Source of the DNA: Escherichia coli
GTDB lineage: Bacteria > Pseudomonadota > Gammaproteobacteria > Enterobacterales > Enterobacteriaceae
Assembly (NCBI RefSeq): GCF_003334815.1
Contig: NZ_QOWO01000018.1
DNA: 64,000 nt
Strand: one strand, 5' to 3'
The position numbers and the translations under genes were made by a program. The notes beneath the pieces are model-generated. The model had not been told where the DNA came from. It did no database searches and saw nothing but the letters and a program-made list of their open reading frames with translations. This document shows, in pieces, positions 7,914 to 32,323 of the stretch; the stretch's first letter is position 1; each line of letters opens with the position of its first letter.

Positions 7914-10358
7914 TTACCCCAGCGCCTCCACAATCACAATCGCCGCCCGTTCTCCCGCCTTGCCATCCATAAACGCATCGCAATAGTGATGGCGAATCTC
8001 CGTAAGCCGCGCCTGCACCGACCCCCAGTCAAACGCCTCTGACAACAAATAACGCAGTTCTGCAACATCATGAGCAACCGGCAATATTTCGCGGATTCGC
8101 TGGTCGGCGCTCTCTGCCGTGGAATAACTTTTCTCACCGTCGAGCAAATCATTCATGCCCGGAAAGTCGAGCAGGATCACCCGCTTATCAACGTGGATAG
8201 CATCGAAAATAAACCCGCTGTTATCGGTCAGCACGTAATCGGCTTTTGCCAGCAGCGCCAGCGTGTGGCGGGCGGAGTCGGTGCGCTGTTTTAAATGCCT
8301 GCGCACCAGGGCCAGCGATGCTGCTTCTTCCGGGCGTGAGCAGGTGCCATGGTGCAGTTTGCAAATCAGGTTCACATCACCGCTCAAGCGGCCCAATTTT
8401 TCAGCCCAGTGGGGCAGGGAGCTTAATGCGCCAAACGTTGGGGCATAGAGCACCGTAGGTTTACGGTAATCTGATTGGATGTTTTCCGGCAACGCGCGAT
8501 CGAACGTGCCGTTATGCCAGGCGTCGAAGCGCGGGTTGCCGACCACTTTTGCGCTGCCGAAATGCGCCAGCGCCTGCTGACTGTAGTGGCTATAACACAA
8601 AATGCTTTGGTAAAAACGATTCCAGTCGGCGTGGTTCCACGTCTCTTTGGCTAAGCCGTACATAGCGCGGATGTTCACCGCCGCCAGGCCATTGAGCGCA
8701 GGCGTGTGGTAGGGGCTGACCAGGCATTTCACCCGCTGACCATGTGTCTGCATTTCTGACAGACGCATACCTTTAAGCTGCGGATCGTCGATGTTTTTCA
8801 GTGTTTCCAGCATCTCATCAAGAAACGGTTTAAACACGCGGTCATTGATCACTAGTGTGCAGCTCTGCCCCTGCGCCTGTAGAGCGGTGATGATTGGGCG
8901 GTACAGCGTGTAGTGGAATGAGGTTTCCATAAAAAAGCCGATGGTATCGGCGATGGGTAATGTAGATGGCTTGGTGGCTACGGGTAACTTATTGAAATAG
9001 TGAGCAATATTATCAGTCGTTTTTTTCTCGATATCACTAAAACCCGGTCGCTGGTAGCAAAGGCTCGGGTAACAGGCCAGCCATTTGTCGGCGCGTAGCA
9101 GCGGCTGCCAGCAGGCTTCCAGCGAGTGCTCATCGTTGCTCATCTGCTGCGCCAGTTGCGGGTAGTAGCGGCTGTTCACCAGATACGCGCACACTTTGCG
9201 GCAGTCCCGCGCGTGCACCAGCCCCGGCAAACTTTTTAGCATCGTTCCCTGCGAAATTTCGCCACCGAGGATCATCACCTGCCAGGGAATTTTCGCCAGG
9301 CTCGCCAGCAGCGTGTTCAGTACCTGAATATGTTTCTCCTGCTTGAGAATAACCGCGTCATCTTCCAGCAGCAGGTAGTTTTGCCAGCCGTGCTGTTGCG
9401 CCAGGCGCAGCGCCTGTAAGTGCGACTGACGGCGGCCCCGTTGACCGTTTTCATCTTCACTGGCGGCAAGGCGGGTGATCTTCTCAGGTGGAATATGCAG
9501 CAATGCCAGTTCTTCACGGATCTGTTGTAAGCGATCCGGGCGTTTATCCAGATTCAGCAGAACGATCTGATCGATCGCCTGATGGTTGATCGCCTGGTGA
9601 TGAGTGGCGTTATGCAGACTCAGATAAGCATTGCGCAGCAGCGGATCGCGGACGATATCCGTAAGCGCCGCGTTTACTGGCGTGCTGGCCCCGAGAATAA
9701 AATCTTTATCAAAGGTGTTGTGACTATGCGAGATACACAGAATCGTGCGCTCGCCGGGCAGTTGCAGCGGGTTTACGCTGAAATTGTCGGTGAAACGTTT
9801 CTCTTCGCCTAAATTGCAATCATCGTCGTAACGGTGCTTTTTCAGGTAGTTACGGTGATAGCAAAAGGTGCCGTTGAGGATGTTATGCGGGCCAAAGCTG
9901 CGGCTTTGAAAGATGCGGTTGATGTGGCTGTACCAGATGGGGATCTGATCGGAGCCGGAGATGAGCGCCCGGTGTTTTTGCATCATGGCGATGGTGTAAG
10001 AGATTTTATCTGCCGGGTAGTAGTCGTCATCGTCCATGCAGAGGATGTATTCGCCGCGCGCCAGTTCGTTGAGCATGTTGCGTTTTTTGCCCAGCGGCAG
10101 TTTTTCCGGGTGATGGATGTAGCGGATGTTAAAGGCTTCCGGCGTGCCATTGGTCAGGCGGTCGATGATGTGTTGATGGCTTTGTGGGGAATCGTCGAGG
10201 ATGATGAGTTCGCGGCGGTCTGCCGGGTAATCCTGATAGCGGTACATATAGAGCAGGTACGGCAGGAATGCGCCGCGGTTCCAGGTTGGCGTGACGACGC
10301 TGACAAACGGTTTTTCGCGGTGGGTGTTGAGTGTTTTGATGATGGTTGGTGTTGGCAT
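7914..10358 (-). CDS. Large multidomain glycosyltransferase: GT2-like N-terminus, GT25-like middle region, TagB/TagF-like CDP-glycerol glycerophosphotransferase C-terminus
   Basis: 814 aa from ATG at 10358 (MPTPTIIKT); VSVVTPTWNRG...ILDDSP and ILCMDDDDYY (GT-A/DxD-like), central LNLDKRPDRL...LLLEDDAVI region, C-terminal ...YVLTDNSGFIFDAIHVDKRVILLDFPG resembling Glyphos_transf; ORF-track N-terminal extension to 10430 is read-through of a repeat and rejected. Confidence 0.7.
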   Translation of the reverse strand: MPTPTIIKTLNTHREKPFVSVVTPTWNRGAFLPYLLYMYRYQDYPADRRELIILDDSPQSHQHIIDRLTNGTPEAFNIRYIHHPEKLPLGKKRNMLNELARGEYILCMDDDDYYPADKISYTIAMMQKHRALISGSDQIPIWYSHINRIFQSRSFGPHNILNGTFCYHRNYLKKHRYDDDCNLGEEKRFTDNFSVNPLQLPGERTILCISHSHNTFDKDFILGASTPVNAALTDIVRDPLLRNAYLSLHNATHHQAINHQAIDQIVLLNLDKRPDRLQQIREELALLHIPPEKITRLAASEDENGQRGRRQSHLQALRLAQQHGWQNYLLLEDDAVILKQEKHIQVLNTLLASLAKIPWQVMILGGEISQGTMLKSLPGLVHARDCRKVCAYLVNSRYYPQLAQQMSNDEHSLEACWQPLLRADKWLACYPSLCYQRPGFSDIEKKTTDNIAHYFNKLPVATKPSTLPIADTIGFFMETSFHYTLYRPIITALQAQGQSCTLVINDRVFKPFLDEMLETLKNIDDPQLKGMRLSEMQTHGQRVKCLVSPYHTPALNGLAAVNIRAMYGLAKETWNHADWNRFYQSILCYSHYSQQALAHFGSAKVVGNPRFDAWHNGTFDRALPENIQSDYRKPTVLYAPTFGALSSLPHWAEKLGRLSGDVNLICKLHHGTCSRPEEAASLALVRRHLKQRTDSARHTLALLAKADYVLTDNSGFIFDAIHVDKRVILLDFPGMNDLLDGEKSYSTAESADQRIREILPVAHDVAELRYLLSEAFDWGSVQARLTEIRHHYCDAFMDGKAGERAAIVIVEALG

Positions 10359-20150: not shown

Positions 20151-20228
20151 GCACCCGGTTTACGGAATTTAAGAATCCCCATCTTCACGCCGCTTTTAAC
20201 CGGCACGATTTACCGGTAAGGATCCAAC

Positions 20229-24444: not shown

Positions 24445-24857
24445 AGTTGAGTTTACCTTAGCAAGGGATAAATGTTTCCTGATAGTGCTTTGCATAAAGC
24501 ACAGTCTTATACGTCCCTGAGAAGATGATTTTTCTGCGTGATAATTAATATTTTATGGTAATAGGATTATTCTTAATCACTATATGGCGTGGAAATGTAA
24601 CGAAATGACAGGACAGGTACAATAGCCAAATGTGTACTATTTGCAACGCAATGTAAATTTTGGCATCAGTACATTGAGAAGAAAACGCGTTAATTGATGG
24701 TAATCTTAACTATATCAAGCGTTTGATAAAGACATATTTTGATACCTGGCCATGTGGCAGATATTGCTAATAATCTTTTTATCTGAATTTAAACTCTGCT
24801 TTTTTTAGCTAAAAGTGGCATCAGATAAACCGCAGTGAAATTTTTTTAACGGCGGTT

Positions 24858-24884
24858 TTAAGTTTGCTCCCGAGGTGTCGTTTT
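24858..24884 (+). promoter_or_regulatory. Candidate sigma-28 promoter upstream of flagellin lafA
   Basis: TTAAGTTT-N11-GTCGTTTT (7/8 match at -35, weak -10) about 45 nt upstream of the lafA ATG. Confidence 0.25.
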
Positions 24885-24929: not shown

Positions 24930-25844
24930 ATGTTATCTATTAACACCAATAACGCCTCAATGGCCGCCGTTAATGCAATCAGCAAAAGCAGCTCTTCTCT
25001 GTCTACATCTATGGAACGCCTGGCGACAGGTAACCGGATTAACTCTTCTGCCGATGACGCCGCAGGCAAACAAATTGCTAACCGTCTGACAGCACAGTCC
25101 AGCGGTATGGATGTTGCGCTGAGCAACATCAATGATGCCACCGCGATGCTGCAAACCGCCGACAGCATGTTCGACGAAATGTCTGACGTGCTGGGTCGTA
25201 TGAAAGACCTGTCAACTCAGGCAGCGAACGGCACCTACAGCGACGACGATCTGCAGGCGATGCAGGACGAATACGACGAACTGGGCCAGCAGATGTCTGA
25301 CATGCTGCAAAACACCACCTACGGCGGCACCAACCTGTTCGGTGTTTCCGGCACCAGCAACACCGGTACTGACGGCCTGTTCCAGAGCGCGGTAACTTTC
25401 CAGGTGGGCGCGGAATCTTCCGACACCATGACCGTGAACATCTCTAGCCAACTGAACACGCTGGTGACTGACCTTTCTGCTATCAGCAACTCCTTCAGTG
25501 CGGATCAGGCAGACACCACAGGCACCGCAGGCGTTTCTGGCGGTACTGAACTGACTGCGTCTGGCTCGGCTAACCAGATGATCACCAGCATTTCTACCGC
25601 GATGGATGATGTTTCGCAGATCCAGTCCAAGCTGGGTGCGTCTATCAACCGTCTGAACGACACGGCTAATAACCTGACCAGTATGCAGGACAACACCGAA
25701 GTTGCTATCGGTAACATCATGGATACCGACTACGCTACGGAAGCGTCCAATATGACCAAACAGCAGGTGCTGATGCAGACCGGCATCACCATGCTGAAAC
25801 AGTCCAACAGCATGTCCAGCATGGTTTCCAGCCTGCTGCAGTAA
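24930..25844 (+). CDS. lafA: Lateral flagellin
   Basis: 304 aa; flagellin N-terminus MLSINTNNASMAAVN...RINSSADDAAGKQIANRL and C-terminus ...DTDYATEASNMTKQQVLMQTGITMLKQSN...SLLQ; AAGGAG RBS. Confidence 0.9.
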   Translation: MLSINTNNASMAAVNAISKSSSSLSTSMERLATGNRINSSADDAAGKQIANRLTAQSSGMDVALSNINDATAMLQTADSMFDEMSDVLGRMKDLSTQAANGTYSDDDLQAMQDEYDELGQQMSDMLQNTTYGGTNLFGVSGTSNTGTDGLFQSAVTFQVGAESSDTMTVNISSQLNTLVTDLSAISNSFSADQADTTGTAGVSGGTELTASGSANQMITSISTAMDDVSQIQSKLGASINRLNDTANNLTSMQDNTEVAIGNIMDTDYATEASNMTKQQVLMQTGITMLKQSNSMSSMVSSLLQ

Positions 25845-25854
25845 TGGCGGACTT

Positions 25855-25953
25855 GCCGGATGCGGCGTGAACGCCTTATCCGGCCTACAAAATATTGCAA
25901 ATTCAATATATTGCAGAAACCTTGTAGGCCTGATAAGCGCAGCGCATCAGGCA
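25855..25953. repeat. REP/BIME element
   Basis: gccggatgcggcgtgaacgccttatccggcctaca ... tgtaggcctgataagcgcagcgcatcaggca. Confidence 0.8.
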
Positions 25954-26087
25954 GTGTTGCGTTTGTCATCAGTCTCAACACCGCCTGCGGGCGGTGTTGT
26001 TCTTTCTGCGGCAGGCGTATTTCCACCAGACCGGAAATGGCCTTTCCGCCCATTTTTCAATCTATTGATTATTCACATAAAAATTAT

Positions 26088-26102
26088 TGGCACGCCTTTT
26101 GC
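26088..26102 (+). promoter_or_regulatory. Sigma-54 promoter TGGCACG-cctt-TTGC upstream of lafB (fliD-like) operon
   Basis: Exact -24/-12 consensus match 33 nt upstream of ATG 26135. Confidence 0.65.
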
Positions 26103-26134
26103 CAATAACCTGACATCGTTATCCGGAGTCATCA

Positions 26135-27451
26135 ATGATCAACCCAAGAACCATTGCGCAAGAAATCGCTTATGCAGATGTCGCCACTCAGGCGGCAAAC
26201 TTGCAGGAGAAGCAAACGGAGCTGGATGCCGAAAGCAGCGGCCTGGACTCGCTCAGCTCGGCGTTGAGCGATTTCCAGAGCGCCGTGGATGCGCTAAACA
26301 GCGATACCGACGGCCCGGTGACCTTCGCTGCCACCAGCAATAATGACTCGGCGACCGTTTCCGCTAACTCGCAGGCGCAGGCGGGAAGCTACTCGTTTTT
26401 CGTTGAACAACTGGCGCAGGGGCAGCAGACCACGTTCAGTATGGGTGATGACACCTTTTCTGCGACGGGGACGTTCGAAATGACCATGGGCGACAGCACC
26501 ATGGATATTGATCTGGCGGCGGCGGATCAGAACGGTGACGGCGACGGTTTTATCGACGCCAGTGAACTGGTGAATGCGATTAACGACTCCGATGACAATC
26601 CGGGCGTGTCGGCTGCGCTGGTAAAAACCGACGGCACCACCACGATTATGCTCACCTCGGATAGCACCGGGGCGCAGAGCGCGTTTTCGGTGAGCGTAAC
26701 GGGGCATGATGCCAGCAACGATAGCGCCAGCGCGCCCGTTGCCACGGATGTTTCCTCCGCTCAGGACGCGATTATTCATCTCGGTAGCGCCACAGGGCCT
26801 GAGATCACCAACAGCAGCAATACATTTGATGATGTGATCCCCGGCGTCACCATGACTTTCACCGAAGTCAGCGATTCTGACAGCGATCTCACTACCTTTA
26901 ACATCAGCGAAGATTCCAGCGCCAGTCAGGAGAAAGTACAGACCTTTGTCGATGCCTATAACACCTTGATTGATACGGTTGATTCACTGACTACTCATGG
27001 TGATGACAGTACCAGCGCCGGGGTATTTGCAGGCGACGCCGGACTCAATTCACTGGCGAACCAGCTCGATGACATCGCCCATGCCAACTACAACGGCGTG
27101 TCGATTGTTGACTATGGCATCACGCTTGATTCTCACGGCCACTTACAGATTGACTCCGACCAGTTCAACGACGAAATGGCGAAAAATCCTGACGGTCTGA
27201 CCTCTATTTTCGTTGGCGACAACAGCATGGTGGCGCAGATGGACGACCTGATTAACACCTACACGGACTCCAGCAACGGCATCATCACCCTGCGCCAGCA
27301 GAACATTGACGATCAGATGAGCAAAATTCAGGACGAAGGCGATCAGCTTACCGATACCTATAACGCCAACTACGACCGTTATCTCGAGGAGTACACCAAC
27401 ACGCTGGTCGAGGTGTACACCATGAAAGCCAGCATGGCGGCATTCGCGTAA
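26135..27451 (+). CDS. lafB: Flagellar filament capping protein FliD homolog
   Basis: 438 aa, directly downstream of flagellin and upstream of fliS; coiled-coil termini; assignment mainly by synteny. Confidence 0.6.
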   Translation: MINPRTIAQEIAYADVATQAANLQEKQTELDAESSGLDSLSSALSDFQSAVDALNSDTDGPVTFAATSNNDSATVSANSQAQAGSYSFFVEQLAQGQQTTFSMGDDTFSATGTFEMTMGDSTMDIDLAAADQNGDGDGFIDASELVNAINDSDDNPGVSAALVKTDGTTTIMLTSDSTGAQSAFSVSVTGHDASNDSASAPVATDVSSAQDAIIHLGSATGPEITNSSNTFDDVIPGVTMTFTEVSDSDSDLTTFNISEDSSASQEKVQTFVDAYNTLIDTVDSLTTHGDDSTSAGVFAGDAGLNSLANQLDDIAHANYNGVSIVDYGITLDSHGHLQIDSDQFNDEMAKNPDGLTSIFVGDNSMVAQMDDLINTYTDSSNGIITLRQQNIDDQMSKIQDEGDQLTDTYNANYDRYLEEYTNTLVEVYTMKASMAAFA

Positions 27452-27473
27452 CTCAGAAGGAATATCCCTAAAG

Positions 27474-27866
27474 ATGTACCAAGTACAGGACGGCTATTCA
27501 CAATATAAAGAGATCGATCTCGCGGCGCGTACTGCGGCGGCATCGCCTCTGGAACTGGTGCTGGTGCTGTTTTCTGGCCTGATGGACGAGCTGGAACGCG
27601 CCAAAAGCCATATTGAAGGGCGGCGTTTCGAGAAGAAAGCCCAGAGCATCAATAAATGCATCGACATTCTCAATGCGCTTACCAGTTCGCTGGAGTTTGA
27701 AACCGGCGGTGAGCTGGTGGTCAACCTTTCGCGACTCTATGACCACTGCGTTTACCGATTGTATGAGGCCAGCGGCGAATTATCGGCAGAGAAAATCGAT
27801 GAAGTGATGCTGATCTTAAGCAACCTGCGCGAAGGCTGGGAAGGGCTTTCGGGCAAGCTGGGTTAA
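27474..27866 (+). CDS. lafC: Flagellin-specific chaperone FliS homolog
   Basis: 130 aa; ...EIDLAARTAAASPLELVLVLFSGLMDELERAK... typical FliS helical bundle. Confidence 0.8.
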   Translation: MYQVQDGYSQYKEIDLAARTAAASPLELVLVLFSGLMDELERAKSHIEGRRFEKKAQSINKCIDILNALTSSLEFETGGELVVNLSRLYDHCVYRLYEASGELSAEKIDEVMLILSNLREGWEGLSGKLG

Positions 27867-27870
27867 GACG

Positions 27871-28182
27871 ATGGAAAAACAACGCAGGCAACTTTTCGCA
27901 CTGGTCGAGGCGATGAATGAAGCCCTCGACAAGCAACGCTGGCGACGCCTTCCGGCACTGCATCAGCAGTTGATGCGCCAGTTTCACGATTACGCGGCGG
28001 CGGAAACCGACGCGGCGCAGTTCTGTGCGGTAAAGGCGCATTTGTACGGCGCGTTTAATGCCCTGATTAAACGGCGCGAGCAGCGCGCAGAAGTGTTGAA
28101 GGCGCGTATGGAACAGCATCAGCGGCATCAGGAAGGTGTGCTCGCCTACTCAATTGTTAATTTACTTTCGGAGAAGTCATGA
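27871..28182 (+). CDS. lafD: Small helical protein, possible FliT-like chaperone (LafD)
   Basis: 103 aa, position fliS-X-fliK; no strong motif. Confidence 0.4.
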   Translation: MEKQRRQLFALVEAMNEALDKQRWRRLPALHQQLMRQFHDYAAAETDAAQFCAVKAHLYGAFNALIKRREQRAEVLKARMEQHQRHQEGVLAYSIVNLLSEKS

Positions 28183-29240
28183 ATCCGGCATTGCTTGCCA
28201 CGCTCGGAACGCTTGCGGAAACCGCTTCGTTGAAGGCGGATATTTTACCGCCGGTGAGCGGTGAAAACGCGCCCGCGTTTACCCTGCCGAAAATGGCGGT
28301 CGCGGCGGTGGCGGAGCGCGTTCATAGCGCTAAAACCAGTCAGCAACAGGCGACGCGCCCGCAGGAGAACGATCCGGTGGCGATGCAGGCGCTAATGGCG
28401 CTGTTACTTCCACAACCTGCCGCGCCGCATCAGCACACGCCGCAGCCGCGAAACGTCGCAACATCGCCGGTTATCCAGCAATTGACGAAAGCGGTGGTGC
28501 AAAACGCGCCGCAACGCCAGACGCAACAGCAGGAACTCACGCCGTTGCCGCCGCAGTTGCAGGAACTGATCAGTCAGTTGCCACAGGCGAAGCCCGAACA
28601 GCAGGCCAGACTGGCGACTTACGCCAGTGAAGATTTACATGCCATTGCGCCGACGCAGCCGCGCGTTTCAACACAGCCAGCTCGCCCAAAACCTGAACTA
28701 ACCCGTGTGACCGCGCGCCCGCAGGTCGAGCGTAAAACGGAAAAAGTGCCGGACAGCGAACCGGTTATTGCGCGTGCGGTGTTGCAGGTTAAGACGCCGG
28801 AGCTGCTCAGCGAGCATCAGGAGATTGTCGCCAAACCAGCCACGCTTTCGATGGACGAACTGGGCGAAAAACTGACGACGCTTTTGAAAGATCAGATCCA
28901 CTTTCAGCTCAACAAACAACAGCAGATCTCCACCATCCGTCTCGATCCACCGTCGCTTGGCAAGCTCGAGATCGCCGTACAACTCGACAACGGCAAACTG
29001 ATGGTGCACATCGGCGCGAACCAAAGTGAAGTTTGCCGCGCGTTACAGCAGTTTAGCGACGATCTCCGCCAGCATCTGACGGCGCAAAATTTTATGGAGG
29101 TGAACGTACAGGTCTCCTCCGAAGGGCAGTCGCAGCAACAACAACAGTCGGGCCATCAGCAGGAAGAGGTGAGTGCCGCCTTACAGCTTGATGATGCGCC
29201 TCAATTTCAACAGAACGAATCCGTTTTGATCAAAGTGTAA
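28179..29240 (+). CDS. lafE: Flagellar hook-length control protein FliK homolog
   Basis: 353 aa, Pro/Gln-rich central region, C-terminal ...IRLDPPSLGKLEIAVQLDNGKLMVHIGANQSEV... FliK C-terminal domain. Confidence 0.6.
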   Translation: MNPALLATLGTLAETASLKADILPPVSGENAPAFTLPKMAVAAVAERVHSAKTSQQQATRPQENDPVAMQALMALLLPQPAAPHQHTPQPRNVATSPVIQQLTKAVVQNAPQRQTQQQELTPLPPQLQELISQLPQAKPEQQARLATYASEDLHAIAPTQPRVSTQPARPKPELTRVTARPQVERKTEKVPDSEPVIARAVLQVKTPELLSEHQEIVAKPATLSMDELGEKLTTLLKDQIHFQLNKQQQISTIRLDPPSLGKLEIAVQLDNGKLMVHIGANQSEVCRALQQFSDDLRQHLTAQNFMEVNVQVSSEGQSQQQQQSGHQQEEVSAALQLDDAPQFQQNESVLIKV

Positions 29241-29247
29241 AGGCAAT

Positions 29248-29715
29248 ATGAAGAAAATCGTGGTGGCGGGCGTGGTCAGCGCCGTTCTGGCGTTGGTGGT
29301 GGGGGCCGGAGCTGGATGGGGTGTCTGGCATCATTATGCCGGAAAAGGAAAACCGACTGCCGCCGCGCAGACGGAAACGGTGGAAACCCTGGATGAAAGC
29401 AAAAGCGTGTTTGTGACGTTGCCGGAAACCATTGTCACGCTGCATGACAACAACGGCGCGGACCATTATTTGTCGGCGGAATTAGTGATGGTGGTCGCCA
29501 GTGACAAAGAAGCGGAAAAAATAAAACATCAGGAGCCGCTGTATCAAAGTATTGCGGTTGAATGCCTGACGGAAATGAAATTTGAAGATTTGCGTGGCAT
29601 GAAAATATCCGCCATCCGCAAACTCATTTCTGACGCGTTAAAGAAAGATCTTCAGCGTCGCAAAATGAGCGCACCGTATAAGGATTTGCTGGTGAAAAAA
29701 GTGGTCTTCCAGTAA
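29248..29715 (+). CDS. lafF: Flagellar basal-body-associated protein FliL homolog
   Basis: 155 aa, single N-terminal TM helix, FliL-like; precedes fliA. Confidence 0.6.
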   Translation: MKKIVVAGVVSAVLALVVGAGAGWGVWHHYAGKGKPTAAAQTETVETLDESKSVFVTLPETIVTLHDNNGADHYLSAELVMVVASDKEAEKIKHQEPLYQSIAVECLTEMKFEDLRGMKISAIRKLISDALKKDLQRRKMSAPYKDLLVKKVVFQ

Positions 29716-29734
29716 TCACCAGGCGGATATAAAT

Positions 29735-30451
29735 ATGCTACAGGATGTATTCGAGTCGGAAGAATTTGCTGCCGCGCCGGTATTAACCCCGCAGCAGGAG
29801 AGCCACTACTTGCAGGCCTATTTACCGTTGGTGCGTAAAGTGGTGCGGCAACTTGCCCCGCAGTGTAATTGCATTATTGATCGTCAGGATATGGAACAAA
29901 CGGCGTTAATGGGGCTGCTTAATGCCATCCGTCGCTACGGGCTGCCGGACGAAGGTTTTGCGGGCTATGCCGTGCACCGTATTCGCGGCGCGATCCTGGA
30001 TGAGCTGCGCGCTCTCGACTGGCGACCGCGCCAGCTGCGACAGAAATATCATCAGATGAAAGATCTGATTCGCGAAACGCGCAAAAAACTGGGGCACGAA
30101 CCGGAGTGGTCAGAACTGGCCGTGGAAGGGATCTCGCATGAAGATTATCTCGAATATCAGCAACTGGAAGGGGCGGAAACGCTCGCCAGCCTGGACGAAC
30201 TGCTGAACGGCGAAGGGCCTGGCATTCTGCTTGCTGGCAGGGAGCTGGAAGATCAGTTTGTCACCCAGCAAATGCTGCAACAGGCGCTTTCACAATTAAG
30301 CGAAAAAGAGCAACTGATCCTCTCCATGTATTACCAGCATGAGATGAATCTCAAAGAGATTGCGCTGGTATTAGGGCTAACCGAGGCCCGAATTTGTCAA
30401 CTGAATAAACAGATCGCGCAGAAAATTCGTGATTTTGTCTATCCGAATTAA
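29735..30451 (+). CDS. lafS: Flagellar sigma factor sigma-28 (FliA family)
   Basis: 238 aa; sigma-70 family regions 2 and 4 (YLPLVRKVVRQ..., LSEKEQLILSMYYQHEMNLKEIALVLGLTEARICQL). Confidence 0.85.
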   Translation: MLQDVFESEEFAAAPVLTPQQESHYLQAYLPLVRKVVRQLAPQCNCIIDRQDMEQTALMGLLNAIRRYGLPDEGFAGYAVHRIRGAILDELRALDWRPRQLRQKYHQMKDLIRETRKKLGHEPEWSELAVEGISHEDYLEYQQLEGAETLASLDELLNGEGPGILLAGRELEDQFVTQQMLQQALSQLSEKEQLILSMYYQHEMNLKEIALVLGLTEARICQLNKQIAQKIRDFVYPN

Positions 30452-30463
30452 AGTGAAGAAATC

Positions 30464-31327
30464 ATGCAAAAAATATTAGGTTTACTGGTGGTGCTCGGCT
30501 GCGTATTTGGCGGTTATTTTGAAGCGGGCGGGCAATTAGTGGCTATCTGGCAACCGGCGGAAATGATCATTATTTTGGGTGCCGGTTTCGGGGCGATGAT
30601 TATTGGTAACCCGAAACATGTGCTGAAAGAGATTGCCCATCAAATTAAAGGCGTAATCAGTAAAAAACAGCTCGGGCCGGAGTTTCAGCGCCAGCTATTA
30701 ATGTGCCTGTATGAGTTACTCGAAATGGTGCAAAACGGTGGTCTGCGCATGCTGGATCAACATATTGAGCAACCGGAAGAGAGCACCATTTTCCAGAAAT
30801 ACCCGCTGGTGTTAACCCAGAAGCGGCTGGTGACCTTTATTGCCGATAACTTTCGCCTGATGGCGATGGGTAAAATCGACGCCCATGAACTGGAAGGCAT
30901 TCTCGATCAGGAACTGGACACCGCGGAAGAGTCGCTGCTAACGCCGTCGCGCTCGCTGCAACGTACCGCCGAAGCGATGCCGGGGTTTGGCATTTGTGCG
31001 GCGGTGTTGGGCATCATCATCACCATGCAGTCGATTGACGGCTCTATCGCCCTGATTGGCCTGAAAGTGGCGGCAGCGCTGGTGGGGACATTTTTAGGCG
31101 TCTTTATCTGCTACTGCCTGATGGACCCACTCGCCAACGCCATGGAACAACAGGCGCGGGCAGAACATTCTTTGCTGGAATGCGTGCGTACCGTGCTGGA
31201 GGCGCAGGCAGGCGGCAAACCGACGCTGCTGGCGGTGGACGCCGGGCGTAAGCTACTGCATCTGGCGTCCAAACCGACCTTCGCCAACCTCGACGCGTGG
31301 GTGAATGCGATGCTGGAGCAAGAATAA
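30464..31327 (+). CDS. lafT: Flagellar stator protein MotA homolog
   Basis: 287 aa, four TM helices, MotA/TolQ/ExbB family. Confidence 0.85.
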   Translation: MQKILGLLVVLGCVFGGYFEAGGQLVAIWQPAEMIIILGAGFGAMIIGNPKHVLKEIAHQIKGVISKKQLGPEFQRQLLMCLYELLEMVQNGGLRMLDQHIEQPEESTIFQKYPLVLTQKRLVTFIADNFRLMAMGKIDAHELEGILDQELDTAEESLLTPSRSLQRTAEAMPGFGICAAVLGIIITMQSIDGSIALIGLKVAAALVGTFLGVFICYCLMDPLANAMEQQARAEHSLLECVRTVLEAQAGGKPTLLAVDAGRKLLHLASKPTFANLDAWVNAMLEQE

Positions 31328-31329
31328 GC

Positions 31330-32253
31330 ATGAGAAAGACGGGTAACCGCCGCGATCGTGGGGCAAAAACCACCATCGTCCGGCGGCAGATCAAAAAGAA
31401 TCATGCCGGGCACCACGGCGGGGCGTGGAAGGTGGCGTTCGCCGACTTTACTTTGGCAATGATGGCGCTGTTTATGACGCTGTGGATTGTCAACAGCGTC
31501 AGTAAATCCGAGCGTGAAAGCATTATCGCCGCGCTGCACGGGCAGTCGATTTTTAACGGTGGTGGGCTGTCGCCGTTAAATAAAATCAGCCCGTCTCATC
31601 CGCCAAAACCTGCCACCGTGGCGGTGCCGGAAGAGACGGAGAAAAAAGCGCGTGATGTGAATGAGAAAACGGCGCTGCTGAAGAAGAAATCCGCCACCGA
31701 GCTTGGTGAGCTGGCAACCAGTATCAACACCATTGCCCGTGATGCGCATATGGAAGCGAATCTGGAGATGGAGATTGTTCCCCAGGGATTACGCGTGCTG
31801 ATTAAAGACGACCAGAACCGCAATATGTTTGAACGCGGCAGCGCGAAGATTATGCCGTTCTTTAAAACGCTGCTGGTGGAGCTCGCGCCAGTGTTCGACT
31901 CGCTCGATAATAAAATTATTATTACCGGGCATACCGATGCGATGGCCTACAAAAACAATATCTACAACAACTGGAACCTTTCGGGTGACCGCGCGCTTTC
32001 GGCTCGTCGGGTGCTGGAAGAGGCCGGAATGCCGGAAGATAAAGTGATGCAGGTAAGCGCAATGGCGGACCAGATGCTGCTGGATTCCAAAAATCCGCAA
32101 AGCGCGGGCAACCGGCGCATTGAGATTATGGTGCTGACCAAAAGTGCGTCCGATACGCTGTATCAATACTTTGGTCAGCATGGGGATAAAGTGGTGCAGC
32201 CGCTGGTGCAAAAGCTGGATAAGCAGCAGGTGCTTTCGCAGCGAACGCGTTAA
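31330..32253 (+). CDS. lafU: Flagellar stator protein MotB homolog with OmpA-like peptidoglycan-binding domain
   Basis: 307 aa from ATG 31330; TM helix WKVAFADFTLAMMALFMTLW with conserved Asp; C-terminal NLSGDRALSARRVL...GNRRIEI OmpA-like motif. Confidence 0.85.
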   Translation: MRKTGNRRDRGAKTTIVRRQIKKNHAGHHGGAWKVAFADFTLAMMALFMTLWIVNSVSKSERESIIAALHGQSIFNGGGLSPLNKISPSHPPKPATVAVPEETEKKARDVNEKTALLKKKSATELGELATSINTIARDAHMEANLEMEIVPQGLRVLIKDDQNRNMFERGSAKIMPFFKTLLVELAPVFDSLDNKIIITGHTDAMAYKNNIYNNWNLSGDRALSARRVLEEAGMPEDKVMQVSAMADQMLLDSKNPQSAGNRRIEIMVLTKSASDTLYQYFGQHGDKVVQPLVQKLDKQQVLSQRTR

Positions 32254-32291
32254 ATGCTGAATCTTTACGCATTTCTCAAACCCTGAAATCA

Positions 32292-32307
32292 CTGTATACT
32301 TTACCAG
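32292..32307 (+). promoter_or_regulatory. LexA (SOS) box CTGTATACTTTACCAG upstream of dinB
   Basis: CTG-N10-CAG palindrome 17 nt upstream of the dinB ATG. Confidence 0.7.
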
Positions 32308-32323
32308 TGTTGAGAGGTGAGCA

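Follow-up and report, generated by a model that had tools for sequence, protein, structure and literature searches.

The lateral flagella (Flag-2) locus of Escherichia coli was reportedly described by Ren et al. in 2005. In the lateral system of Vibrio parahaemolyticus, the fliDSTKLAmotAB operon, which contains the sigma-28 gene fliA_L, is a LafK- and sigma-54-dependent class II operon (Stewart and McCarter 2003, cited through PMC6963403 and PMC4481668), and PMC6963403 lists the same operon in both class II and class III and gives lafA, flgKL, and flgMN as the sigma-28-dependent class III units. An RpoN site (TAGGCACGTATCTTGCGAT) has been predicted before the V. parahaemolyticus lafB gene (VPA1550), and this promoter was not bound by RpoN alone in an electrophoretic mobility shift assay (PMC9817140); sigma-54 alone is a weak test. 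In Plesiomonas, FliA_L positively regulates the operon fliDS-lafX-fliKL-fliA-lafTU (PMC11242183), and in Aeromonas hydrophila many lateral clusters are reported to be LafK-independent (Wilhelms et al. 2013, cited through PMC4481668). For E. coli, the text of Liu et al. 2015 (PMC4578781) places the sigma-54 motif analyzed here upstream of lfgB as well as lafB in strain PCN033; as found, that text makes no mention of the palindrome, the integration host factor (IHF) core, the third promoter, or the LafS-type promoters described below. The main text of an RpoN ChIP paper on Yersinia pseudotuberculosis does not mention Flag-2 or lateral genes.

Here, we analyzed a 64-kb stretch of DNA (hereafter, the window), which is E. 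coli chromosome with an intact Flag-2 locus, the locus naming following De Maayer et al. (PMC6993521). Many E. coli chromosomes match the region around the motif with 100% identity, and the Flag-2 genes are all annotated as intact in the matching RefSeq genomes. Gene names were checked against the RefSeq annotation of these genomes, in which the series reads lafA, fliD (lafB here), fliS, a hypothetical gene, fliK, a fliL family gene, a FliA/WhiG sigma factor gene, motA, and lafU, followed by dinB; farther upstream, the annotation gives flhA/B, fliR/Q/P, FliM/N genes, a gene for a sigma-54 interaction domain protein, and fliE to fliJ. An anti-sigma factor is also encoded within the locus, lfgM being annotated as FlgM. 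The sigma-54 activator gene lafK (936-1922, + strand), recognized by both Pfam scan and annotation, lies about 25 kb upstream of the lafB promoter in the same locus. Its 328-aa product matches PF00158 at 8.6e-64, with an AAA+ sigma-54 interaction domain beginning at residue 6, an AAA lid, and a C-terminal Fis-type helix-turn-helix (HTH_8), and the Pfam scan detected no N-terminal regulatory domain, neither receiver nor FleQ. PspF-type activators have no sensory domain and, by analogy, a LafK without a regulatory domain should be active whenever it is made.

The window agrees with the V. parahaemolyticus system in gene content and order (FliD, FliS, FliT-like, FliK, FliL, FliA_L, MotA, MotB), in the combination of a LafK activator with a sigma-54-type site before lafB, and in an operon-encoded sigma-28 factor for lafA, flgKL, and flgMN, which in the window is read from motifs. 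It differs in that the E. coli LafK is short and has no N-terminal domain, unlike in the Vibrio system, and in that the palindrome considered below lies 48 nt upstream of the sigma-54 site, versus 59-103 nt in Vibrionaceae loci. Moreover, the operons of V. parahaemolyticus and Plesiomonas also depend on FliA_L (sigma-28), whereas the window has no LafS-type motif before lafB. With A. hydrophila, the window shares LafK, LafS, and the same gene block, but Aeromonas-like loci, unlike the window, have no sigma-54 site before lafB, in line with the LafK independence reported for many clusters of that genus. The Flag-2 of E. coli 042 and PCN033 is the same locus with the same motif, and the promoter itself does not differ.

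The sigma-54 promoter, TGGCACGCCTTTTGC, is found at 26088-26102 on the + strand (-24 TGGCAC, -12 TTGC), upstream of lafB (26135-27451, + strand), the first gene of the operon, which encodes a FliD-type filament cap. An earlier, sequence-only reading had singled out this motif, as TGGCACG-cctt-TTGC, and our analysis confirmed it as exact, rare, and positionally conserved; the location given in that reading also stands, although the distance of 33 nt to lafB does not, as we counted 32 nt between the motif end at 26102 and the lafB ATG at 26135. Specifically, TGGCACGCCTTTTGC matches TGGCAC-N5-TTGC exactly and, of the 16 positions that YTGGCACG-N4-TTGCW specifies or leaves degenerate, agrees with 15; the exception is the last one, a C instead of W, so that the -11 base is C where the consensus has A/T. 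The invariant GG and GC doublets are exactly 10 bp apart, within TTGGCACGCCTTTTGCC (26087-26103). Searching both strands of the window returned two exact TGGCAC-N5-TTGC matches, against 0.34 expected from shuffles, and both are on the + strand, each shortly before the gene that opens a flagellar operon (13161 for lfgB, 26088 for lafB). When one mismatch was allowed, 13 matches were found versus 7.5 expected, which is hardly above chance, and what carries the case for the site is therefore the exact matches together with where they lie. The lafB site is intergenic and correctly oriented, with the lafA terminator preceding it, and the same locus encodes LafK, a cognate AAA+ activator of the enhancer-binding class. 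Based on the usual -24/-12 geometry, transcription would start at about 26114. By its sequence, TGGCACGCCTTTTGC is a real, deeply conserved sigma-54 promoter of the lafB-to-lafU operon, and we consider it very probable that it works as a LafK/sigma-54 promoter for these genes. The promoter as such is not new, the motif having already been published for E. coli PCN033.

The surrounding intergenic region displays a full promoter layout. Downstream of lafA (24930-25844, + strand), Rfam matches were limited to REP-derived elements at 25834-25931, with nothing at the lafB promoter itself. These are followed by an intrinsic terminator of lafA (25976-25999, + strand; CAACACCGCC-tgcg-GGCGGTGTTG then TTCTTTCT), for which a terminator scan gave a GC-rich hairpin of 10 bp with a T-rich tail. 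The RNA fold of 25845-26010 (166 nt) is far better than that of shuffles (z = -7.2), and the hairpin is kept in an alignment of nine Enterobacterales sequences. Given the strength of this hairpin, lafA transcription should stop before the motif. Between the terminator and the start codon, the elements are arranged in the order palindrome, IHF core, -24/-12, Shine-Dalgarno, and ATG. The palindrome, a candidate LafK enhancer, is GGAAAtggccTTTCC at 26033-26047, centred 48 nt upstream of the first base of TGGCAC. A degenerate second palindrome with one mismatch (GGCAGGCGTATTTCC, 26010-26024), centred 71 nt upstream of TGGCAC, was seen only in the window and two Pseudocitrobacter loci, and may act as a weaker second activator site. 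The candidate IHF core (AATCAATAGATTG, 26058-26070, - strand) is an exact WATCAA-N4-TTR located between the palindrome and the -24 element. The Shine-Dalgarno GGAG (26125-26128, + strand) is found 6 nt before the lafB ATG, within an ACGGAGT conserved in the Enterobacterales alignment. The scan also flagged a hairpin at 26032-26048 as terminator-like, a reading which we rejected because the palindrome also occurs before lfgB, before the methylase gene described below, and before Pseudomonas lafB genes that have no lafA upstream, and thus in places without an upstream gene end.

Promoters of the nifH and Pu type combine an upstream activator palindrome with an intervening IHF core and GG/GC doublets at -24/-12. 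The lafB promoter has the same layout, except that its candidate activator site is unusually close (the palindrome is centred about 73 nt from the predicted start, a shorter distance than is typical of enhancers) and that LafK is sensor-less, as PspF is.

The genes downstream of the promoter are arranged as a compact block on the + strand, i.e., lafB, lafC (27474-27866; FliS), lafD (27871-28182), lafE (28179-29240; FliK-type), lafF (29248-29715; FliL-type), lafS (29735-30451; FliA/WhiG-type sigma-28 factor, starting 19 nt after lafF), lafT (30464-31327; MotA, stator), and lafU (31330-32253; MotB-like, stator), which marks the operon end. The successive gaps between these eight genes are 22, 4, -4, 7, 19, 12, and 2 nt, and consensus scans, which weak promoters can escape, detected no convincing + strand terminator or promoter inside lafB-lafU. 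Since the gaps are small and no internal terminator or promoter was found, lafB to lafU are likely co-transcribed. The gene order was also examined in related loci: a LafB homologue search yielded only E. coli and Citrobacter among the best 120, too narrow a range for footprinting, and we therefore used a LafS-like sigma factor profile with a genome scan, which gave 80 loci, drawn from contigs of one genome per species. The order lafB-C-(D)-E-(F)-S-T-U (FliD-FliS-(FliT-like)-FliK-FliL-FliA-MotA-MotB, on one strand) is kept in all 80. The sequence-only reading had described the downstream genes as tightly spaced through lafS and the stator genes and had taken the motif as the sigma-54 promoter of the lafB-to-lafU operon; the first point is upheld by gaps of -4 to 22 nt and by the order kept in 80 loci, and the second is supported at the sequence level by the full promoter layout, the upstream lafA terminator, and the presence of LafK in the locus.

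Promoter motifs elsewhere in the window suggest how this operon fits into a larger hierarchy. The second exact sigma-54 promoter (TGGCACGGCGATTGC, 13161-13175, + strand) precedes lfgB (13213-13548, + strand, ATG at 13213), with a palindrome, aGGAAAtaaaaCTTCC at 13095-13109, centred 59 nt upstream of the sigma-54 site. A third, sigma-54-type promoter with one mismatch (CGGCACGCTTATTGC, 11502-11516, - strand) precedes, by 35 nt, the gene of a FliB-like lysine methylase (10537-11466, - strand) and a glycosyltransferase gene, and its palindrome (11557-11571) is centred 48 nt upstream. For sigma-28, the canonical E. coli FliA consensus (TAAA-N15-GCCGATAA) has no match before lafA or any laf gene, and we instead derived a lateral sigma-28 motif, TTTAAG-N14/15-GYCGYYTT, from cross-genus lafA upstream regions. 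Without mismatches, this LafS-type motif occurs in the 64 kb only before lafA (24857-24884, + strand; TTTAAG-N14-GTCGTTTT), where it is conserved in many genera, and before lfgK (20168-20196, + strand; TTTAAG-N15-GCCGCTTT). A two-mismatch version precedes lfgM (12380, - strand), about 1.9 matches being expected in shuffles at that tolerance. In the window, no LafS-type motif was found before lafB, lafS, or lafT, and the lafM-lafK intergenic region (550-935) contains neither a sigma-54 nor a LafS-type motif. The motif-bearing late units, lafA, lfgK, and lfgM, correspond to the V. parahaemolyticus class III units lafA, flgKL, and flgMN. Taken together, the motifs allow the window to be read as a three-tier system, with the lafK operon first, the units with a sigma-54 site and palindrome (lfgB, lafB, and the modification genes) second, and the LafS-type units third. 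This is the cascade that the earlier reading had predicted, from sigma-54/LafK to sigma-28 to late genes such as the flagellin gene, and at the sequence level it is supported by the LafK domains, the position of lafS in the operon, and the sigma-28 motifs at lafA and lfgK. The cascade is already known, as it equals the published V. parahaemolyticus hierarchy, the one system for which the literature establishes that lafS expression requires lafK and that lafA expression requires lafS.

The cascade may not be strictly linear: the sigma-54 promoter could be real and lafS nevertheless also be transcribed from a weak internal sigma-70 promoter or through sigma-28 autoregulation, in which case LafK would not be the sole switch of sigma-28. 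The dual listing of the V. parahaemolyticus operon in class II and class III (PMC6963403) and the activation of the orthologous Plesiomonas operon by FliA_L (PMC11242183) both point this way, and the placement of promoters within the block appears changeable, given that Aeromonas sp. RU39B and Thalassomonas carry a sigma-54 site with a palindrome after lafC and not before lafB. In the window, however, no credible LafS-type sigma-28 motif was detected on the + strand of 25845-31400 with up to three mismatches, a simple consensus scan, which misses weak promoters, gave no sigma-70-like match upstream of lafS, and the lafF-lafS gap leaves only 19 nt. We thus regard a branched cascade as possible but unlikely in this locus.

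Next, we evaluated the variation of the lafB promoter within E. coli. The promoter region was present in 1276 of 5426 complete genomes, and the intergenic allele of the window is rare, with 43 genomes at ≥99% identity and 1229 at 90-95%. Six diverged E. coli alleles, differing by 6-9% and by indels, were aligned: among these, REP content varies, one strain carries a tandem triplication, and base changes are scattered, while the terminator stem, the palindrome half-sites, the 17-nt core TTGGCACGCCTTTTGCC, and the Shine-Dalgarno are invariant. The invariance of core, palindrome, and Shine-Dalgarno amid varying neighbours indicates purifying selection. This bears on the proposal that the promoter is intact but silent in E. 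coli, i.e., that Flag-2 is cryptic or decaying and the motif an inherited relic. Such a relic would be consistent with the deletion of Flag-2 in most E. coli, with the lfgC frameshift of strain 042 (as quoted in PMC4578781), and with strain EC958, for which no LafA was detected under any condition of the study, in LB broth or LB soft agar at 28 and 37 C (PMC4637896). EC958, however, is without several Flag-2 genes that are present in the window (PMC4637896), and the intact Flag-2 genes of the matching RefSeq annotations and the selection just described both argue against decay, which makes a silent relic distinctly improbable.

The same alleles inform the interpretation of a perfect 9-bp inverted repeat, TTATTGGCA-N7-TGCCAATAA, at 26084-26108, in which the motif is embedded. 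If this repeat were the operator of a dimeric regulator, its likeness to a sigma-54 site would be secondary, and it is true that its arms are 100% complementary and that six extra pairs match outside the bases fixed by the sigma-54 consensus. The repeat, however, shrinks to 8 bp in most E. coli alleles, and its right arm is broken in GN05505; Citrobacter, Phytobacter, and RIT691 have different flanking bases (TTGCTATCA and others) but keep TGGCA-N6-TTGC, so that conservation tracks the sigma-54 elements and not the inverted repeat. We therefore consider an operator very improbable, rejected the repeat as a separate element, as it is conserved neither in E. coli alleles nor in other genera, and treated it as incidental.

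To evaluate conservation across genera, the 370 nt before each lafB orthologue were scored with a weighted sigma-54 consensus (maximum 23), for which a score ≥20 was found in 2.4% of random 370-nt windows. Sites scoring ≥20 and located 25-70 nt before the lafB start codon were detected at all eight Enterobacterales loci, at about 16 of 18 loci of Pseudomonas, Stutzerimonas, and Cellvibrionaceae, and at seven of eight from Shewanella and Ferrimonas. Among the five Vibrionaceae loci, two had such a site, two more scored 19.5 in the same interval, and the fifth scored 20 at 157 nt upstream. None was found at this threshold and distance in Betaproteobacteria and Xanthomonas, nor in Aeromonas, Zobellella, Oceanisphaera, Marinobacter, and Thalassomonas. 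That the lafB motif is a chance match without function, for which the commonness of one-mismatch matches in the window (13 versus 7.5 expected) might speak, is effectively refuted by these comparative data and deserves almost no credence, as the exact match is rare (2 versus 0.34 expected), correctly positioned and oriented, conserved over four Gammaproteobacteria orders at a fixed distance from lafB, and accompanied by a conserved palindrome and IHF core.

The palindrome itself was found in association with sigma-54 sites. Exact GGAAA-N5-TTTCC has two copies in the 64 kb, each 48 nt upstream of a sigma-54 site, and the one-mismatch copy aGGAAAtaaaaCTTCC is found 59 nt (48 + 11) upstream of that of lfgB, so that the distances at the three sigma-54 promoters of the window are 48, 48, and 59 nt. 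An alternative description of the repeat as TTTCCG-N6-CGGAAA was dropped, GGAAA-N5-TTTCC fitting all three promoters better. Across 1.5 Mb of loci plus the window, the relaxed form GGAAR-N5-YTTCC has a density of 0.12 per kb, yet of 189 sigma-54-like sites, 51 have it no more than 140 nt upstream, versus about 3 expected. It is present in the lafB promoters of Enterobacterales, Pseudomonas, Shewanella, and Vibrionaceae, at distances that are fixed within clades and differ between them: 47-49 nt in Enterobacterales, 50-53 and 91-94 nt for the two copies of Pseudomonas lafB promoters, 91-103 nt in Shewanella, and 59-69 or 103 nt in Vibrionaceae, while in Pseudomonas lfgB promoters it is found at 114-117 nt. 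The simplest reading, and a likely one, is that GGAAA-N5-TTTCC is the LafK enhancer, a reading drawn from compared loci most of which have no lafK in the retrieved stretch. IHF binding at 26058-26070 is suggested by a similar comparison, the exact IHF core being found at fixed positions in 10 of 39 lafB promoter regions and in 0.3-0.5% of control windows (about 50-fold enrichment). No account of a LafK binding site turned up in the searchable literature, although a prior description is possible, and the conserved palindrome is thus the only possibly new point of this analysis, and a modest one.

Based on these features, host sigma-54 holoenzyme would be held on TGGCAC-N5-TTGC as a closed complex, and the GGAAA-N5-TTTCC palindrome, 48 nt upstream, would serve as the LafK binding site. 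An IHF-induced bend at 26058-26070 would help LafK, which would use ATP to open the promoter, yielding a single transcript from about 26114 through lafB-lafC-lafD-lafE-lafF-lafS-lafT-lafU. Its products would include the filament cap, chaperones, hook-length control, the stator, and the sigma-28 factor LafS; upon export of the anti-sigma factor LfgM, LafS would drive transcription at the late promoters of lafA, lfgKL, and probably lfgMN. In this scheme, we infer from sequence features that LafK binds the palindrome and IHF its core, where transcription starts, that the genes are co-transcribed, and that expression in vivo depends on rpoN, lafK, and lafS.

Overall, these results lay out, at the level of sequence, how a second flagellar system, found in about one in four complete E. 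coli genomes, is wired: an early lafK operon with neither motif, three middle promoters that combine a sigma-54 site with a shared palindrome, and three late ones with a LafS-type motif. This scheme shows an experimenter which sites to mutate or to place in a reporter fusion, and it further suggests that the timing of Flag-2 switch-on reduces to the control of lafK transcription. More broadly, we lean slightly towards the view that GGAAR-N5-YTTCC is a LafK enhancer conserved over at least four Gammaproteobacteria orders and spaced from the sigma-54 sites before lafB, lfgB, and the E. coli flagellin-modification operon at intervals that are clade-specific and helically phased, and that, with a sensor-less LafK, the Flag-2 middle class would be set only by the amount of LafK. 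If true, the LafK regulon would be predictable in any genome from sequence alone.

The sigma-54 sites preceding lafB, lfgB, and, in the window, a flagellin-modification operon have a GGAAR-N5-YTTCC palindrome upstream at fixed distances, an element shared with the related lateral-flagella loci L008-L086. In the window, its copies lie at 26033-26047 (lafB), 13095-13109 (lfgB), and 11557-11571 (modification operon), and across the compared loci the element is conserved in Enterobacterales, Pseudomonas, Shewanella, and Vibrionaceae. This palindrome is likely the enhancer of LafK, the sigma-54 activator encoded in the locus. In E. coli E2855 (locus L007, about 220-300), a palindrome-bearing 23-bp unit, TTTCCGCCAGACCGGAAACGCCA, occurs in tandem triplicate upstream of the lafB promoter, which gives this naturally occurring allele three candidate copies of the enhancer.

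An exact IHF core consensus (26058-26070, minus strand) separates the palindrome of the lafB promoter from its -24 element. When 39 lafB promoters of other genomes were compared, 10 had exact cores, at fixed offsets. The sigma-54 motif is itself enclosed by a perfect 9-bp inverted repeat, TTATTGGCA-N7-TGCCAATAA (26084-26108); since other genera do not keep this repeat and one E. coli allele disrupts it, it is probably incidental. The surrounding lafA-lafB intergenic allele (25995-26330) is rare, being found at ≥99% identity in 43 of 1276 E. coli genomes; most of the other genomes match it at 90-95% identity. Elsewhere in the locus, a REP-type indel of 118 bp distinguishes the lfgJ-lfgK spacer from its counterpart in strain A14.

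The lafK gene (936-1922) encodes a product of only 328 aa, in which the AAA+ domain begins at residue 6, and neither a receiver nor a FleQ-type N-terminal domain is present. Its upstream region (550-935) contains REP elements, and neither a sigma-54 nor a sigma-28 motif was found there. A sigma-28 motif of the LafS type (LafS being the sigma factor encoded in the lafB-lafU operon), TTTAAG-N14/15-GYCGYYTT, is found with zero mismatches before lafA (24857-24884) and lfgK (20168-20196), and with two before lfgM (12380 region, minus strand). This LafS-type motif is unlike the E. coli FliA consensus, for which no match was found anywhere in the locus. At the operon's far end, no terminator-like structure was detected in the 70-nt lafU-dinB gap (32254-32323), and the dinB LexA box (CTGTATACTTTACCAG, 32293-32308) comes directly next, so that transcription of the lafB operon reading through into dinB is conceivable.

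Further pairings of palindrome and sigma-54-like site were observed. Inside lfgG, ahead of the 203-nt lfgG-lfgH gap, a weak sigma-54-like site (TGGCACAGTGACGGC, 17318-17332) has a palindrome with one mismatch (GGAAATCGACGTTCC, 17270-17284) 41 nt before it; this pair could act as a weak internal promoter or could have arisen by chance. In Enterobacteriaceae RIT691 (locus L014, 4410, minus strand), a perfect palindrome precedes a strong sigma-54 site, TGGCATGCTTATTGCT, by 58 nt; this site and lafA are on opposite strands. The sigma-54 site of Aeromonas sp. RU39B and Thalassomonas, with its palindrome 59-60 nt upstream, follows lafC rather than preceding lafB (L078, 7632; L085, 7640), and the LafK-dependent unit in these genomes may begin at lafD/lafE.

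The third sigma-54-type promoter of the window, CGGCACGCTTATTGC (11502-11516, minus strand), shows the same 48-nt palindrome spacing as lafB. Downstream, on the same strand, lie the gene for a FliB-like flagellin lysine methylase homologue (10537-11466) and then a large glycosyltransferase gene (7914-10358). The LafK class seems to include these flagellin-modification genes.
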